From NCBI GenBank assembly GCA_045576375.1, contig JAZNGI010000025.1, positions 1 to 42,770 of the forward strand: 42,770 bases of DNA. Reading direction: 5' to 3'. Shown one piece after another: positions 3,519 through 27,051 of this stretch. Source of the DNA: Eubacteriales bacterium. Its GTDB lineage: Bacteria > Bacillota > Clostridia > Oscillospirales > SIG627. The position numbers were made by a program, and so were the translations under genes. How positions within the stretch are numbered: position 1 is the stretch's first letter; each line of letters starts with the position of its first letter. The notes beneath the pieces were generated by a model, which saw only the letters and a list, made by a program, of their open reading frames with translations, was not told the DNA's origin and searched no databases.

Positions 3519-3630
3519 TTCTTTTCCATAAATTTGCAAGCGAAAACCCGCCGGAATCCCCGTTTCGGAGAAACCGTCCCCGATTTTATAAAAAAACGAG
3601 AAATTATTTTTACATTTTTTGCTTTTCATG

Positions 3631-3659
3631 TTGACTTCTATGGAAAAAACTGATAAAAT
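3631..3659 (+). promoter_or_regulatory. SigA promoter of fba
   Basis: TTGACT (3631-3636), 17 nt, TAAAAT (3654-3659). AAAGGAG SD ~8 nt before the ATG at 3698. Confidence 0.65.
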
Positions 3660-3697
3660 ATCAGAAGAAAAATCTATGTTTAAAGGAGATTACGAAT

Positions 3698-4633
3698 ATG
3701 CCACTGGTTAGTTCCAAAGAAATGTTCGAGAAGGCATACAAGGGCGGATACGCCATCGGTGCTTTCAACGTAAATAACATGGAGATCATCCAAGGTATCA
3801 CCGAGGCCGCCAAGGAAGAGAACGCTCCCGTTATTCTTCAGGTTTCCTCCGGCGCAAGAAAGTACGCAAACCGTACCTACCTTGTAAAGCTGGTTGAGGC
3901 CGCTATCATCGAGACCGGTCTTCCCATCTGCCTGCACCTGGATCACGGCGACACCTTCGAGCTGTGCAAGTCCTGCGTGGACGACGGCTTCACCTCCGTT
4001 ATGATCGACGCTTCCAGCAAGTCCTTTGAGGACAACATCGCTCTCACCAAGCAGGTGGTGGAATACGCTCACGCTCACGGCGTTACCGTTGAGGCAGAGC
4101 TTGGCACGCTGGCCGGCGTGGAAGACGACGTGAACGTTTCCGCAGAGGACAGCTCCTACACCCGTCCCGAGGACGTTCAGGAGTTCGTTGAGAGAACCGG
4201 TTGCGACTCCTTGGCCATTGCCATCGGCACCAGCCACGGCGCTTACAAGTTTAAGCCCGGCACCAAGCCCCAGCTGAGATTTGACATTCTGGAGGATGTT
4301 TCCAAGCGTCTTCCCGGCTTCCCCATCGTTCTCCACGGCTCTTCTTCCGTTCCCCAGGAATACGTGAAGATGATCAACGAGAACGGCGGTAACATGCCCG
4401 GCGCCATCGGTATTCCCGAGGATCAGCTTCGCCAGGCCGCAAGAAGCTCCGTTTGCAAGATCAACATCGACTCTGACCTTCGTCTGGCTCTCACCGGTAC
4501 CATCCGCAAGTACTTCAACGACAACCCCGCAGAATTTGACCCCAGAAAGTACCTCGGACCCGCAAGAGAGAACATCAAGCAGATCGTTAAGCACAAGCTG
4601 GTTAACGTTCTGGGCTGCAACGGCAAGGCATAA
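3698..4633 (+). CDS. fba: Class II fructose-1,6-bisphosphate aldolase
   Basis: 311 aa. MPLVSSKEMFEKAYKGGYAIGAFNVNNME..., LHLDHG, GTSHGAYKF, VLHGSSSVP are typical class II FBA motifs. Confidence 0.95.
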   Translation: MPLVSSKEMFEKAYKGGYAIGAFNVNNMEIIQGITEAAKEENAPVILQVSSGARKYANRTYLVKLVEAAIIETGLPICLHLDHGDTFELCKSCVDDGFTSVMIDASSKSFEDNIALTKQVVEYAHAHGVTVEAELGTLAGVEDDVNVSAEDSSYTRPEDVQEFVERTGCDSLAIAIGTSHGAYKFKPGTKPQLRFDILEDVSKRLPGFPIVLHGSSSVPQEYVKMINENGGNMPGAIGIPEDQLRQAARSSVCKINIDSDLRLALTGTIRKYFNDNPAEFDPRKYLGPARENIKQIVKHKLVNVLGCNGKA

Positions 4634-25478: not shown

Positions 25479-25562
25479 GAAAATTACCATTGCCCCGCCC
25501 CATCGTTTGGTTCCCCCCTGTTTTCAGTTGGGCGGCAGCCCAAACCCACGAACAACAAAAAA

Positions 25563-25594
25563 AGAGAAGATTCTCACGAGTCTTCTCTTTTTTG
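25563..25594. terminator. Bidirectional rho-independent terminator
   Basis: A-run, then an 11-bp stem AGAGAAGAUUC/GAGUCUUCUCU with a UCAC loop, then TTTTTT. Confidence 0.8.
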
Positions 25595-25601
25595 TCTATA
25601 T

Positions 25602-25768
25602 AGTGATATGCTGACTAAAGTCAGCGTGATATTTTCGCTTTGCGAAAGTGGTATGAAACCCGTCGGTTTCGTGATGTTCTATTCCCTTTTAACTTGCGTA
25701 GCAAATATCACTCGGCGTAAGGCGAATATCACTGCGAAGCAATATAACTCGCTCTAGGCGAATAGAGT
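25602..25768. repeat. Array of eight phased heptamers, each flanking a different small palindrome. Four are forward (GTGATAT-like) and four are inverted (ATATCAC-like).
   Basis: Forward copies: GTGATAT at 25603 and 25626, GTGGTAT at 25648, GTGATGT at 25671 (spacing 23/22/23). Inverted copies: ATATCAC at 25705 and 25726, ATATAAC at 25742, ATAGAGT at 25762. The intervening hairpins have unrelated stems: CTGACT/AGTCAG, TTTCGC/GCGAAA, GAAACC/GGTTTC, TTGC/GCAA, TCG/CGA, TGC/GCA, TCGC/GCGA. Confidence 0.7.
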
Positions 25769-25769
25769 T

Positions 25770-25797
25770 GCGAGATACTCCGCTTGGAGTATCTCGC
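25770..25797. repeat. Perfect 12-bp hairpin closing the heptamer array
   Basis: GCGAGATACTCC-GCTT-GGAGTATCTCGC. Confidence 0.8.
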
Positions 25798-25909
25798 TAA
25801 AGGGTAACGGTGTTCTTTTGCAAAAAAATGTTTTTTAGTTCTTGGAGAATTACCGTTTTTATGTTATGTATTACAATATTTATCATTGTTTTTTGGGTAT
25901 TGTGCGGAA

Positions 25910-25938
25910 TTGACAAAAACATTCCCCTATGATAGAAT
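25910..25938 (+). promoter_or_regulatory. SigA promoter (extended -10) driving the sORF cassette
   Basis: TTGACA, 17 nt ending in TGA, then TAGAAT. Confidence 0.65.
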
Positions 25939-25967
25939 GAAGTTACCAAGAAAAGGAGGAAACGCCA

Positions 25968-26069
25968 ATGAACATTTTGATGACAAACGCTCACCGTGCC
26001 GTCTTGTGCGCCGTCCCCCTCCGTTTTCACAGGAGGATCCCGCAAAAGTTCAGTTTACCGTGCGCATAA
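25968..26069 (+). CDS. Candidate 33-aa small ORF or leader peptide (MNILMTNAHRAVLCAVPLRFHRRIPQKFSLPCA)
   Basis: Not in the track (under 60 aa). AAAGGAGG SD 8 nt before the ATG. Its own promoter lies upstream. The stop codon lies inside the 5' arm of the following terminator. Confidence 0.4.
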   Translation: MNILMTNAHRAVLCAVPLRFHRRIPQKFSLPCA

Positions 26070-26102
26070 GCGGCAGAAAAGCTGTGGCTTATGCGCTTTT
26101 TT
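26062..26102 (+). terminator. Rho-independent terminator or attenuator between the sORF and the lipoprotein gene
   Basis: GCGCATAAGC, 15-nt loop, GCTTATGCGC, then TTTTTT. Confidence 0.8.
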
Positions 26103-26141
26103 ATCGAAAAAAAACAATAAAAAAAAGAAAGGATGAAAAGA

Positions 26142-26930
26142 ATGAAGCACATTTCTCTTTTTCTTTTGTTGTGCCTTGTTTTCAGTCTTTTCTCTTGTGC
26201 GGTCCATGAAACCGAAAAGCTCCCCGAGGAAAGCCCCGGTTTTCCTTCCCAAACCTCTTCCCCTCTCGAAAGTGAAGAGATAATTGACGGCTGTACTTTT
26301 GGTTGGAATTTTCACTGCGAAACGTATGAAGAATACCTTCAAGAGTTCAAACAGACCATGGAATATAAGGAGAACTTCTTCTCTTTTGAGGATCTTATGC
26401 TGTTGGAAGGGTGCGAGTTTTATGAGTTTTGGGCAAACGTCGACCCGAAGCACTCCCTTCCCTTTTCCTCCACGGATCAATTGGAGTTCTATACTTATGT
26501 CGTGAAATATGCAAACGACTTTTGGACCTTTTCGTTTTATGCAAACCAAACACTGATTGATCCCAAGAAAAGCTTAAGCAGCGAAGAGGTTTGCGCAGAC
26601 CGCTTGACTTGTACCGCCGAACCAACAGAGAGTGTTTACCTTTCCGCGGACGGGATCGAGTATCACTACTATGAAAAAAAGCTATCACAAATCTGTTGGT
26701 TAGAAAATGAAGTTCTCGTGAAAGTAAGCTACACAAACGATCGCTCCCTTGCCAAGGGACTTCGTGCATACTACGACCCTACGGGAGAAGCCTTTTTGAC
26801 CAAGCTTTTGGATCCCCAAAGAGCCAAGGAAGCAACCGATTGGTTTGGAAGCAGGACTCCCTATCCTTGGAAGAACGCGGCGACTCTCAACGGCAAAGAG
26901 GAAACGGATGCTTTTCTCGCTCTTTGGTAA
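26142..26930 (+). CDS. Hypothetical lipoprotein (orphan, low GC)
   Basis: MKHISLFLLLCLVFSLFSC: signal peptide with lipobox L-F-S-C. The start may be 26133 or 26142 (AAAGGA SD favours 26142). I recognise no family. A/T-ending codons contrast with the neighbours. Confidence 0.6.
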   Translation: MKHISLFLLLCLVFSLFSCAVHETEKLPEESPGFPSQTSSPLESEEIIDGCTFGWNFHCETYEEYLQEFKQTMEYKENFFSFEDLMLLEGCEFYEFWANVDPKHSLPFSSTDQLEFYTYVVKYANDFWTFSFYANQTLIDPKKSLSSEEVCADRLTCTAEPTESVYLSADGIEYHYYEKKLSQICWLENEVLVKVSYTNDRSLAKGLRAYYDPTGEAFLTKLLDPQRAKEATDWFGSRTPYPWKNAATLNGKEETDAFLALW

Positions 26931-27012
26931 ATGCCGACTCCCTTTACCCACTACAGTGCCCCGGAAGATATCGGAGCGCTAAAGAAGACCTTTAAATTTG
27001 ACCGCCTAATGC

Positions 27013-27041
27013 AAAAAAGAGCCGCACAGCGGCTCTTTTTT
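27013..27041. terminator. Bidirectional terminator between the lipoprotein and SDR genes
   Basis: AAAAAA, then AGAGCCGC-aca-GCGGCTCT, then TTTTT. Confidence 0.8.
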
Positions 27042-27051
27042 CGTTTCGTGT

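Follow-up and report, generated by a model that had tools for sequence, protein, structure and literature searches.

The window analysed here covers positions 1 to 42,770 of contig JAZNGI010000025.1 (assembly GCA_045576375.1) from a Eubacteriales bacterium of the Oscillospirales (SIG627). The feature in question is an array of GTGATAT-type heptamers and small hairpins that lies among housekeeping genes, between a thioesterase gene and a dehydrogenase gene. Judged by homology, it is composed of two convergent units of the repeat family Gut-1 (Rfam RF01706), and positions 25525-25801 are one solo, somewhat decayed two-armed Gut-1 copy. Its left neighbours are the remnant of a conserved non-coding module, here called the U module, and the thioesterase gene. 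From left to right, the copy comprises the following components:

25525..25557, plus strand: truncated U module, 3' half (hairpin TTGGGC-GGCA-GCCCAA, then AACAACA), detected by nhmmer with the U module of the relative L112
25558..25595, unstranded: bidirectional intrinsic-terminator hairpin with A-run, 16-nt arms and T-run (inverted repeat I1, 94% complementary)
25602..25677, plus strand: left arm with boundary A and heptamers H1-H4, assigned by the Rfam Gut-1 match and compensatory changes in its hairpins
25610-25625, 25633-25647 and 25655-25670, plus strand: left-arm hairpins A, B and C, supported by compensatory changes
25678..25687, plus strand: 5' strand of a long-range helix, TCTATTCCCT (family consensus TMTATTCGCC), which pairs with 25757-25766
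25694..25768, minus strand (the Gut-1 sense): right arm, assigned by the Rfam Gut-1 match on the minus strand
25694-25704, 25712-25725, 25733-25741 and 25749-25761: right-arm hairpins D, E, F and G
25757-25766, in the right arm: 3' strand of the long-range helix
25770..25797, unstranded: terminal perfect 12-bp hairpin GCGAGATACTCC-GCTT-GGAGTATCTCGC without T-run (perfect inverted repeat I2)

The four forward heptamers (GTGATAT at 25603 and 25626, GTGGTAT at 25648, GTGATGT at 25671) are spaced by 23, 22 and 23 nt, the four inverted ones (ATATCAC at 25705 and 25726, ATATAAC at 25742, ATAGAGT at 25762) by 21, 16 and 20 nt. In the forward half, three 6-bp hairpins of unrelated sequence, GCTGAC-TAAA-GTCAGC, TTTCGC-TTT-GCGAAA and GAAACC-CGTC-GGTTTC, separate the heptamers. 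In the inverted half, each heptamer has a shorter hairpin in front: TTGC-GTA-GCAA, TCGGC-GTAA-GGCGA (with one G.G mismatch), TGC-GAA-GCA and TCGC-TCTA-GGCGA. On the plus strand, the loops GTA, GTAA and GAA of this half are of the GNA or GNRA type. A first-pass annotation of the window had described this array, and all features it listed were found where it had placed them.

GTGATAT occurs six times in the 42.8-kb window, four times inside the array, while 1.18 occurrences are expected; the phased heptamer-pair pattern occurs twice versus 0.00 expected. The shuffling test that had been proposed as a possible refutation was run with 20,000 dinucleotide-preserving shuffles of positions 25595-25800 (206 bp). 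Five GTGAT/ATCAC cores were obtained in none of them (maximum four), nor were four exact heptamers, and four perfect hairpins of at least 5 bp appeared in only 12. The array is not a chance product.

The annotation had recognized no RNA family at this site, which did not hold. When the window was scanned permissively, i.e. below the Gut-1 gathering cut-off of 50 bits, both halves matched Gut-1: 25601-25682 on the plus strand with 41.7 bits (E 9.5e-7) and 25700-25770 on the minus strand with 43.2 bits (E 4e-7). Both matches cover positions 1-77 of the 77 model positions. L036, which is 85% identical to the window copy, scores 60.3 bits and L040 73.4 bits, and L054, L037, L069, L075 and L117 reach 51-59 bits, above the cut-off. 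The arms that exceed it are the right arms of L036 and these six other relatives. Because the scores of the window lie below the cut-off and those of its 85% identical relative above it, the window copy is regarded as a decayed member of Gut-1, which belongs to the family through homology and not through a curated score. Signs of decay are the altered heptamers GTGGTAT and GTGATGT, the G.G mismatch in hairpin E, the imperfect pairing of the long-range helix and the truncated U module. The 85% identity to L036 and L112 is confined to 25525-25801, and the flanking genes are unrelated; the block shared with L036 stops at 25801.

Gut-1 was described as a non-coding RNA from the human gut only and rated a certain, non-cis-regulatory RNA on the basis of covariation (Weinberg et al., 2010; Genome Biol 11:R31, PMC2864571). 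The family description gives neither a function nor a partner, and in the literature searched, no later discussion of Gut-1 was found. When the Gut-1 seed alignment is inspected together with its flanks, the forward-then-inverted layout is already visible, and the heptamers within one element switch jointly between GUGAAAU and GUGAUAU. Pattern scans yielded 120 genome loci and 120 metagenome loci. Genuine heptamer-plus-hairpin arms are present in 77 of the 121 sequences of the genome set (120 loci and the window). Nearly all hosts are metagenome-assembled genomes (MAGs) of Clostridia, Oscillospiraceae, Acutalibacteraceae or Ruminococcaceae from human, ruminant, horse and chicken gut. Well-formed GTGAAAT-plus-hairpin arms were also seen in bins outside the Clostridia, namely in L004, L009 and L089 (Akkermansia MAGs) and L002 (a Bacteroidaceae MAG), which could reflect either real spread or binning contamination.

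From 138 two-armed elements, a shared plan was drawn. Each arm is a series of units in which the 7-nt linker GTGAWAT precedes an obligatory Watson-Crick hairpin that is free in sequence, and the arms are turned towards one another. On the left, a boundary A is followed by GTGAWAT, hairpin A, a heptamer, hairpin B, a heptamer, hairpin C and a heptamer. A strand of 10-11 nt (TATATTCGCC in the class of the window) and a short linker form the middle. The right half consists of hairpin D, an inverted heptamer, hairpin E, an inverted heptamer, hairpin F (mostly TGCGAAGCA) and an inverted heptamer. The element ends with TCGCC-loop-GGCGAATATA-AC and, after 2-4 nt more, a 10-14-bp hairpin.

Covariation was assessed in an alignment of 25 sequences (A1). 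In the local hairpins, 95.5% of the cells are paired and two-sided changes occur in 27 pairs; none of 500 shuffles equalled this support, and slid controls were only 34-43% paired. Compensatory changes were found in six of six pairs of hairpin A, five of six of hairpin B and six of six of hairpin C. Hairpins D and E covary, and F and G are nearly invariant. This bears out the earlier view that the hairpins vary in sequence and are conserved in shape. The hairpins are shown to be structures selected in single strands, and the heptamers that link them stay unpaired and switch jointly.

An additional, long-range helix connects the strand after the fourth forward heptamer with the final ~10 nt of the element (96.8% paired). 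One of its positions is variable in the alignment and covaries (pair 106:208: A:U in 14, C:G in five and U:A in four sequences, unpaired in two). In the GTGAAAT class, it has compensatory changes at several positions (GAAATAAATCC/GGATTTATTTC, GAAATTTGCCC/GGGCAAATTTC and TAAATCCGTCC/GGACGGATTTA). By this covariation, the second arm is closed by the long-range helix. In the window, eight of its ten pairs are Watson-Crick pairs and one is a wobble. The 3' strand of the helix alternatively forms hairpin G, so that two conformations are possible.

The stacking of multi-way junctions through pairing between forward and inverted heptamers, as it had been proposed in the first-pass annotation, is not compatible with these data. 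No compensatory change was observed, pair 35:188 is broken in 14 of the 25 sequences and pair 9:209 in 23, and where right-arm heptamers vary, the left-arm heptamers do not follow. With no pairing between heptamers, this part of the proposal fails; the helix that is supported is the long-range one. An extension of the hairpins by UAU/GUG pairs, suggested by RNAalifold, is lost in the GTGAAAT class and was treated as spurious. The terminal 12-bp hairpin had been interpreted as a cap. It is present and perfect, but it is more than a cap: within the subfamily of the window, this end module is conserved, and L036 and L069 have homologous hairpins that show two compensatory pairs. In other copies, a bidirectional terminator with A-run and T-run that is shared with a tRNA gene takes its place.

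The upstream terminator hairpin proper (25558-25593) closes both the U module and the thioesterase transcript. It is the strongest folded helix on either strand and belongs to the block homologous to L036 and L112. The window copy could be transcribed only by read-through of this terminator. Automatic terminator tests upstream of the arms are confounded, as the T-runs form part of the stems. Gene-orientation statistics from a crude open reading frame (ORF) caller were unreliable and were not used: the caller had mis-called the thioesterase gene of the window itself.

How is the element distributed? The left boundary is sharp, with A at position -1 in 106 of 118 distinct flanks. In these 118 flanks, no conserved promoter was detected at a constant distance from the left arm, and the right arm is not preceded by one either. 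Scattered plausible candidates in a few copies were all that was found, and the idea of a conserved upstream promoter was discarded. Cis-regulation of one fixed gene family was also rejected, as the neighbours are heterogeneous and the clusters of ABC and AraC genes generic. Genes for transposases, integrases or HUH proteins do not recur around ~170 loci, and such a partner was dropped; target-site duplications were not seen. Searches of plasmids gave no match and those of phages a single weak one to a gut phage; of 120 viral pattern matches, only ~5 are real arrays. A plasmid or phage origin was therefore rejected. Several near-identical copies with differing flanks are found per contig in L046, L090 and L111. 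The ends of the element, TAGTGATAT and CAGTTATAT, are imperfectly inverted (seven of nine positions).

A tRNA gene is present within 400 nt of 30 of the 138 elements, and in 24 of the 138 it lies 34-45 nt beyond the right end and is encoded on the opposite strand. Read in the direction of the tRNA, the junction is invariant across 16 tRNA types: CCA, 1-2 nt, an A-run hairpin with T-run and then CAGTTATATTCGCC. Because hairpin families are common to different tRNAs, the hairpin travels with the element. In these genomic layouts, Gut-1 is shown as a promoter-less and ORF-less cassette that is dispersed in gut Clostridia and docks directly after transcription terminators, very often exactly after a tRNA gene.

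Clustering of the neighbouring ORFs revealed one non-housekeeping family, a protein of ~118 aa that belongs to PF05635 (23S_rRNA_IVP) / TIGR02436 ('four helix bundle protein'). When the ~200 pattern-selected loci were searched with the profile, 19 PF05635 ORFs were found at 18 loci. Sixteen of these loci have the ORF directly next to the left arm, on the strand opposite to it: the stop-to-stop ORF is at most 56 nt away from the arm or overlaps it, and the gene starts 4-56 nt beyond the arm in one fixed orientation. Between the boundary ...ATATCAC|T and the start codon, most of these arm-linked genes carry a near-consensus promoter of their own, TTTACA-17-TATAAT, and the array finishes 6-8 nt before the -35 box.

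The link was also sampled from the protein. Four of 7,877 homologues (E <=1e-10) were looked up regardless of arrays. P0186 and P0183 represent one locus (L365, L381) with the order peptidase, tRNA, terminator, Gut-1 pair, promoter, gene; it is also the locus of the Gut-1 seed row BAAZ01025322. At the P0233 locus, two tRNAs are followed by terminator, Gut-1 pair, promoter and gene. At the P0161 locus, between trmO and a membrane-protein gene, Gut-1 units flank the gene on both sides. Hence, arrays were found at three of three independent loci. The downstream arm of the P0161 locus follows the stop codon and precedes the first terminator, so that it is transcribed, in the sense annotated by Rfam. 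Among ten strains with an identical P0161 protein, the gap beside the gene measures 217-693 nt upstream and 157-491 nt downstream due to differing counts of units and of whole pairs. This trmO / four-helix-bundle locus (L371-L380; ~760-1500 and 1857-2350) resembles a variable-number repeat and is a candidate strain marker. Taken together, the layouts sampled from both sides show that Gut-1 arrays are physically coupled to PF05635 genes.

Protein clade and heptamer type go together: one clade, with NQLERSATSIGANIxEANYAH, accompanies GTGAAAT, the other, with NQLLRSGTSIGANIHEAQYAQ, accompanies GTGATAT. The differences fall within the PF05635 signature motif. The called genes flanking the four-helix-bundle genes are those for a peptidase, CHAP, TrmO, PNP and an oxidoreductase. 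No reverse transcriptase was detected near the four-helix-bundle genes and no template or variable repeats in the flanks examined, and no paper linking Gut-1 to PF05635 was found in the literature searched. Three further loci deserve mention. In L028, an Oscillospiraceae MAG, tandem GTGAAAT heptamers separated by GAGCAAT and without hairpins (972-1020) adjoin a divergent PF05635 gene at 1085-1516, a hint that for the protein, the heptamer by itself may be relevant. In the Akkermansia MAG L004, a PF05635 gene is located at a distance of 339 nt from the arms. In one strain (L388, 1-1200), the tRNA genes beside the cassette of Gut-1 and four-helix-bundle gene are replaced by a large-serine-recombinase element that apparently integrated in a tRNA gene.

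PF05635 is the family of Avd (PMC10053308), which forms a barrel that binds the structured RNA of diversity-generating retroelements (DGRs) (PMC10053308; bioRxiv 10.1101/2023.10.23.563531). The closest solved homologue of the Gut-1-linked protein, PDB 2RLD, has five chains. We propose that the units of heptamer plus hairpin would be the cognate sites of this small Avd-like four-helix-bundle protein. The five chains of 2RLD and the barrel formed by the Avd of DGRs make it probable that the protein is oligomeric. Such an oligomer would contact several heptamers simultaneously, and the hairpins would serve as rigid spacers that keep these in the ~22-nt register. 'Master' copies would be those immediately upstream of the gene of the protein, sometimes on both sides of it. 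Solo copies such as that of the window would be additional sites or relics, analogous to repetitive extragenic palindromic (REP) sequences versus their REP-associated tyrosine transposase (RAYT) gene. RNA is preferred as the substrate because of the arm in the 3' untranslated region (3' UTR) and the Avd precedent: the mRNA of the protein itself would present the sites in its 3' UTR, as would read-through transcripts after terminators, and the resulting ribonucleoprotein might be comparable to Avd with DGR RNA. For the window, this reading, i.e. a solo Gut-1 copy whose units are predicted binding sites for an Avd-like protein with RNA as favoured substrate, is put at even chances. Slightly more tentative is the general proposal that Gut-1 arrays and PF05635 proteins form a hitherto undescribed two-component module, in which an oligomeric Avd-like barrel reads the heptamers with co-evolving specificity (GTGAAAT/GTGATAT) on a hairpin comb and which, itself or as ORF-less offspring, spreads to positions precisely after tRNA genes and further terminators. 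The annotation had offered three readings, a protein-binding array, a structured RNA and a decayed miniature repeat. Each of them captures something, and none is complete alone.

Which strand and which nucleic acid the structures serve was assessed from loops and mismatches. Between sense heptamers, the loops TTC (51), TGC (27), TTAC (17), TTT (16), TTGC (15) and TAC (13) prevail. On the ATWTCAC strand, these appear as the GNA triloops GAA, GCA and GTA and the GNRA tetraloops GTAA and GCAA, plus AAA. In DNA, a GNA triloop with a closing C-G pair is exceptionally stable. For the mismatch statistics, heptamer-delimited hairpins were used exclusively, and an unguided search of right arms was discarded on account of spurious stems. 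In sense orientation, the stems contain 1777 Watson-Crick pairs, 9 G.T, 21 A.C and 24 other mismatches, and left arms alone have 12 G.T versus 24 A.C. Wobble pairs are not commoner than other mismatches, while G.U pairs are common in real RNAs. The weak 2:1 mismatch bias favours the strand opposite to the orientation in Rfam. Loop and mismatch statistics together question the annotated strand of Gut-1.

Several points weigh against a protein-bound RNA comb. The window copy stays below the Gut-1 cut-off with both arms (41.7 and 43.2 bits against 50), and a six-frame profile search of the 42.7-kb window found no PF05635 gene; it is a solo element without such a gene starting within ~60 nt of its left arm. 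Arms mostly carry four heptamers, not five. The array lies mostly upstream of the PF05635 promoter and outside the transcript, which suits a DNA operator equally well as RNA. The stems are near-strictly Watson-Crick (G.U ~0.5% and A.C ~1% of the pairs); together with the GNA loops, this is more in line with single-stranded DNA (ssDNA), or with constraint acting on both strands, than with a typical RNA, and the loop pattern indicates the strand opposite to that of Rfam. The co-segregation of protein clade and heptamer type may reflect shared ancestry instead of co-evolution, and the adjacency of array and gene could result from co-mobility or from a shared liking for sites after tRNA terminators.

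An element that acts at the DNA level is judged rather unlikely. It would be a folded ssDNA used in replication or recombination, a non-autonomous cassette moved in trans or a double-stranded (dsDNA) operator. In the mobile version, comparable to a miniature inverted-repeat transposable element (MITE) or to REP sequences, the heptamer arrays would be end-binding sites; in the operator version, a dsDNA array upstream of its promoter would be bound by the four-helix-bundle protein. A DNA mechanism, be it operator, folded ssDNA or mobilisation, is retained because of the Watson-Crick strictness of the stems, the GNA triloops and the position upstream of the promoter, with the array finishing 6-8 nt before the -35 box at protein-linked loci. 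Many hairpins are of the GCGAAGC type, and the arms are symmetric, the strand with the GNA loops running 5'-3' outward at both ends. The sharp boundaries with the inverted ends TAGTGATAT and CAGTTATAT, the identical copies at separate loci, the nucleotide-precise docking after 16 kinds of tRNA gene, the expansion and contraction of units among strains and the location of the window copy within a 1.57-kb segment that is missing from a syntenic relative point in the same direction. So does a hairpin-loop inversion in L090: in the copies at 2818-2987 and 3533-3702 (minus strand), the terminator hairpin reads CTTGC-TTAC-GCAAG and CTTGC-GTAA-GCAAG, which is a signature of template switching or of a flip-flop at a palindrome. 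However, neither a recurring transposase, integrase or HUH gene near the ~170 loci nor a target-site duplication was seen, plasmid matches are lacking and the single phage match is weak. A dsDNA operator leaves the palindromic spacers with their compensatory changes unexplained, and at one locus the arms are within the 3' UTR of the partner's mRNA.

A free-standing small RNA (sRNA), for example a sponge or a base-pairing sRNA, next to which the neighbouring protein gene would be incidental, is improbable. It would agree with the rating of Gut-1 as a certain, non-cis-regulatory RNA on covariation (Weinberg et al., 2010), with the one-armed copies that end in terminators (L005, L007, L022 and L096) and with the plausible promoters in a few left flanks. 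But 118 distinct flanks have no conserved promoter at a fixed distance, and the motif in the Rfam sense begins right after the T-run of the terminator, leaving no room for a promoter. Furthermore, G.U pairs are as rare as other mismatches, and the repeated link to PF05635 in a fixed geometry is hard to call incidental. Passive padding, in which a comb of hairpins without a specific partner reinforces termination or shields the 3' ends of upstream tRNAs and mRNAs, would suit the constant position after terminators, with each arm in sense relative to the incoming gene, and a symmetric design for convergent transcription, but it is very improbable, as it explains neither the invariant heptamer with its lineage-specific A/T switch across all units nor the link to one protein family, and as the hairpins have no U-tracts.

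Compared with the published description of Gut-1, both window halves share the three hairpins separated by GUGAWAU linkers, the origin from gut Clostridia and the end-to-end alignment with the model. In contrast, the Rfam model covers one arm only, and its description is restricted to the human gut. The paired arms, the long-range helix, the terminal hairpin, the docking at tRNA genes, the wider hosts and the link to PF05635 are absent from that description.

REP sequences and bacterial interspersed mosaic elements (BIMEs) with their RAYT in Enterobacteria and Pseudomonas are likewise short and extragenic, and their palindromic units also bear a single-stranded head that is conserved. They also form clusters of opposed orientation after genes and terminators and comprise many solo copies alongside copies on either side of the presumed partner's gene. 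Yet, the partner of Gut-1 looks like a non-enzymatic four-helix bundle and not like a Y1/HUH transposase, and its palindromes (9-20 nt) all differ within one element, whereas those of REP sequences are near-identical and ~35 nt long. The head of Gut-1 is a 7-mer between hairpins instead of GTAG, and its mobility is putative. A MITE would have terminal inverted repeats, a target-site duplication and a related autonomous element with a transposase gene; the ends of Gut-1 are imperfectly inverted (seven of nine positions), its boundaries are sharp and its copies dispersed, and a duplication and a transposase were not found. The statement of the first-pass annotation that the array is no CRISPR array, iteron set or classical REP is confirmed. 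Iterons and plasmid centromere repeats, whose 17-22-bp units are identical throughout and adjoin rep or par genes on a replicon, were rejected: conservation is limited to 7 nt per ~22-nt unit, housekeeping genes surround the array and no plasmid matched. A CRISPR array would have identical repeats of 24-48 nt, unique non-palindromic spacers, a leader and cas genes, whereas here the conserved part has 7 nt and the variable parts are palindromes conserved between species; no Rfam CRISPR repeat matched the array.

The ribonucleoprotein of Avd and DGR RNA involves a PF05635-like four-helix bundle or barrel as well, and Avd binds a structured RNA encoded beside its gene. In contrast, Gut-1 loci are devoid of a reverse transcriptase and of template or variable repeats in the flanks examined, and the nucleic-acid partner would be a repeat array. 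In CsrB/RsmZ, which bind CsrA, and in the GAG repeats of the trp leader, which are bound by TRAP, a short motif is repeated at regular spacing and presented by hairpins for an oligomeric protein. In Gut-1, by contrast, the motif is found in linkers and not in loops, the arrays are dispersed, promoter-less and arranged in inverted pairs, and binding is only predicted. DUF3800-I, drum and skipping-rope are also orphan covarying motifs, for which a recurrent neighbouring protein gene is the sole functional clue; the partner gene is found nearby in either orientation (Weinberg et al., 2017; PMC5737381). They differ from Gut-1 in the protein family and are not modular repeats. Omega-protein heptads, lambda operator half-sites, a parS half-site, box C and the 3' end of 16S rRNA were treated as leads only and were set aside, as the geometry of the units does not fit.

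The feature in the window is genuine, and homology assigns it to a family that is known but has no function ascribed to it. For the window itself, this is a modest outcome, one solo and decaying copy. The new, testable result concerns the family: the reciprocal link to an Avd-like protein and the precise docking at tRNA genes. Gut-1 has been in Rfam since 2010 without function, partner or host, and PF05635 is the first partner that can be tested. PF05635 proteins outside DGRs occur in rRNA intervening sequences and cas loci; to our knowledge, they are unexplained. If true, the proposal would provide a first function both for an orphan RNA motif and for the large non-DGR branch of the 23S-rRNA-IVS/Avd family. 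The reciprocal and strain-variable association with its fixed geometry leads to one question, namely whether the heptamer comb is bound by the protein, as RNA or as DNA. The arrays are also relevant for annotation, where confusion with sRNAs, terminators or CRISPR-like repeats is possible, and for strain typing, because unit numbers vary between strains. This dispersed repeat family docks with nucleotide precision after tRNA genes in abundant gut Clostridia.

The surroundings of the window copy were compared with a syntenic relative, L244 (GCA_052846995.1), which has the same gene order from an aminotransferase to glutamine synthetase. The gap between thioesterase and dehydrogenase amounts to 92 nt in L244 (3906-3997) versus 1,573 nt in the window (25479-27051). 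The segment present only in the window has a GC content of 0.41-0.45 and comprises the element, an AT-rich promoter region and a lipoprotein-like ORF. The array had been placed at the edge of a low-GC islet, which is correct: the entire 1.57-kb segment is missing from the relative. A near-consensus promoter, TTGACA-17-TAGAAT, is located at 25910-25938, and the lipoprotein-like ORF (26133-26930) has no Pfam domain. Exact look-ups of three window proteins gave no match; the nearest homologue of the thioesterase is 78% identical.

Upstream of the left arm, four relatives contain the complete U module, a conserved non-coding sequence of ~165 nt (L112 7640-7815; L036 660-827, minus strand; L040 6096-6270; L109 1576-1737), and the window retains 25525-25596, corresponding to U positions 93-171 in the nhmmer search with the L112 module. 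No Rfam family matched the U module. It is composed of an outer helix GGGT..ACCC around three hairpins, an invariant ACGGAGAATTT, then AACAACAG and an intrinsic terminator, and in this layout it looks like a riboswitch or a small RNA.

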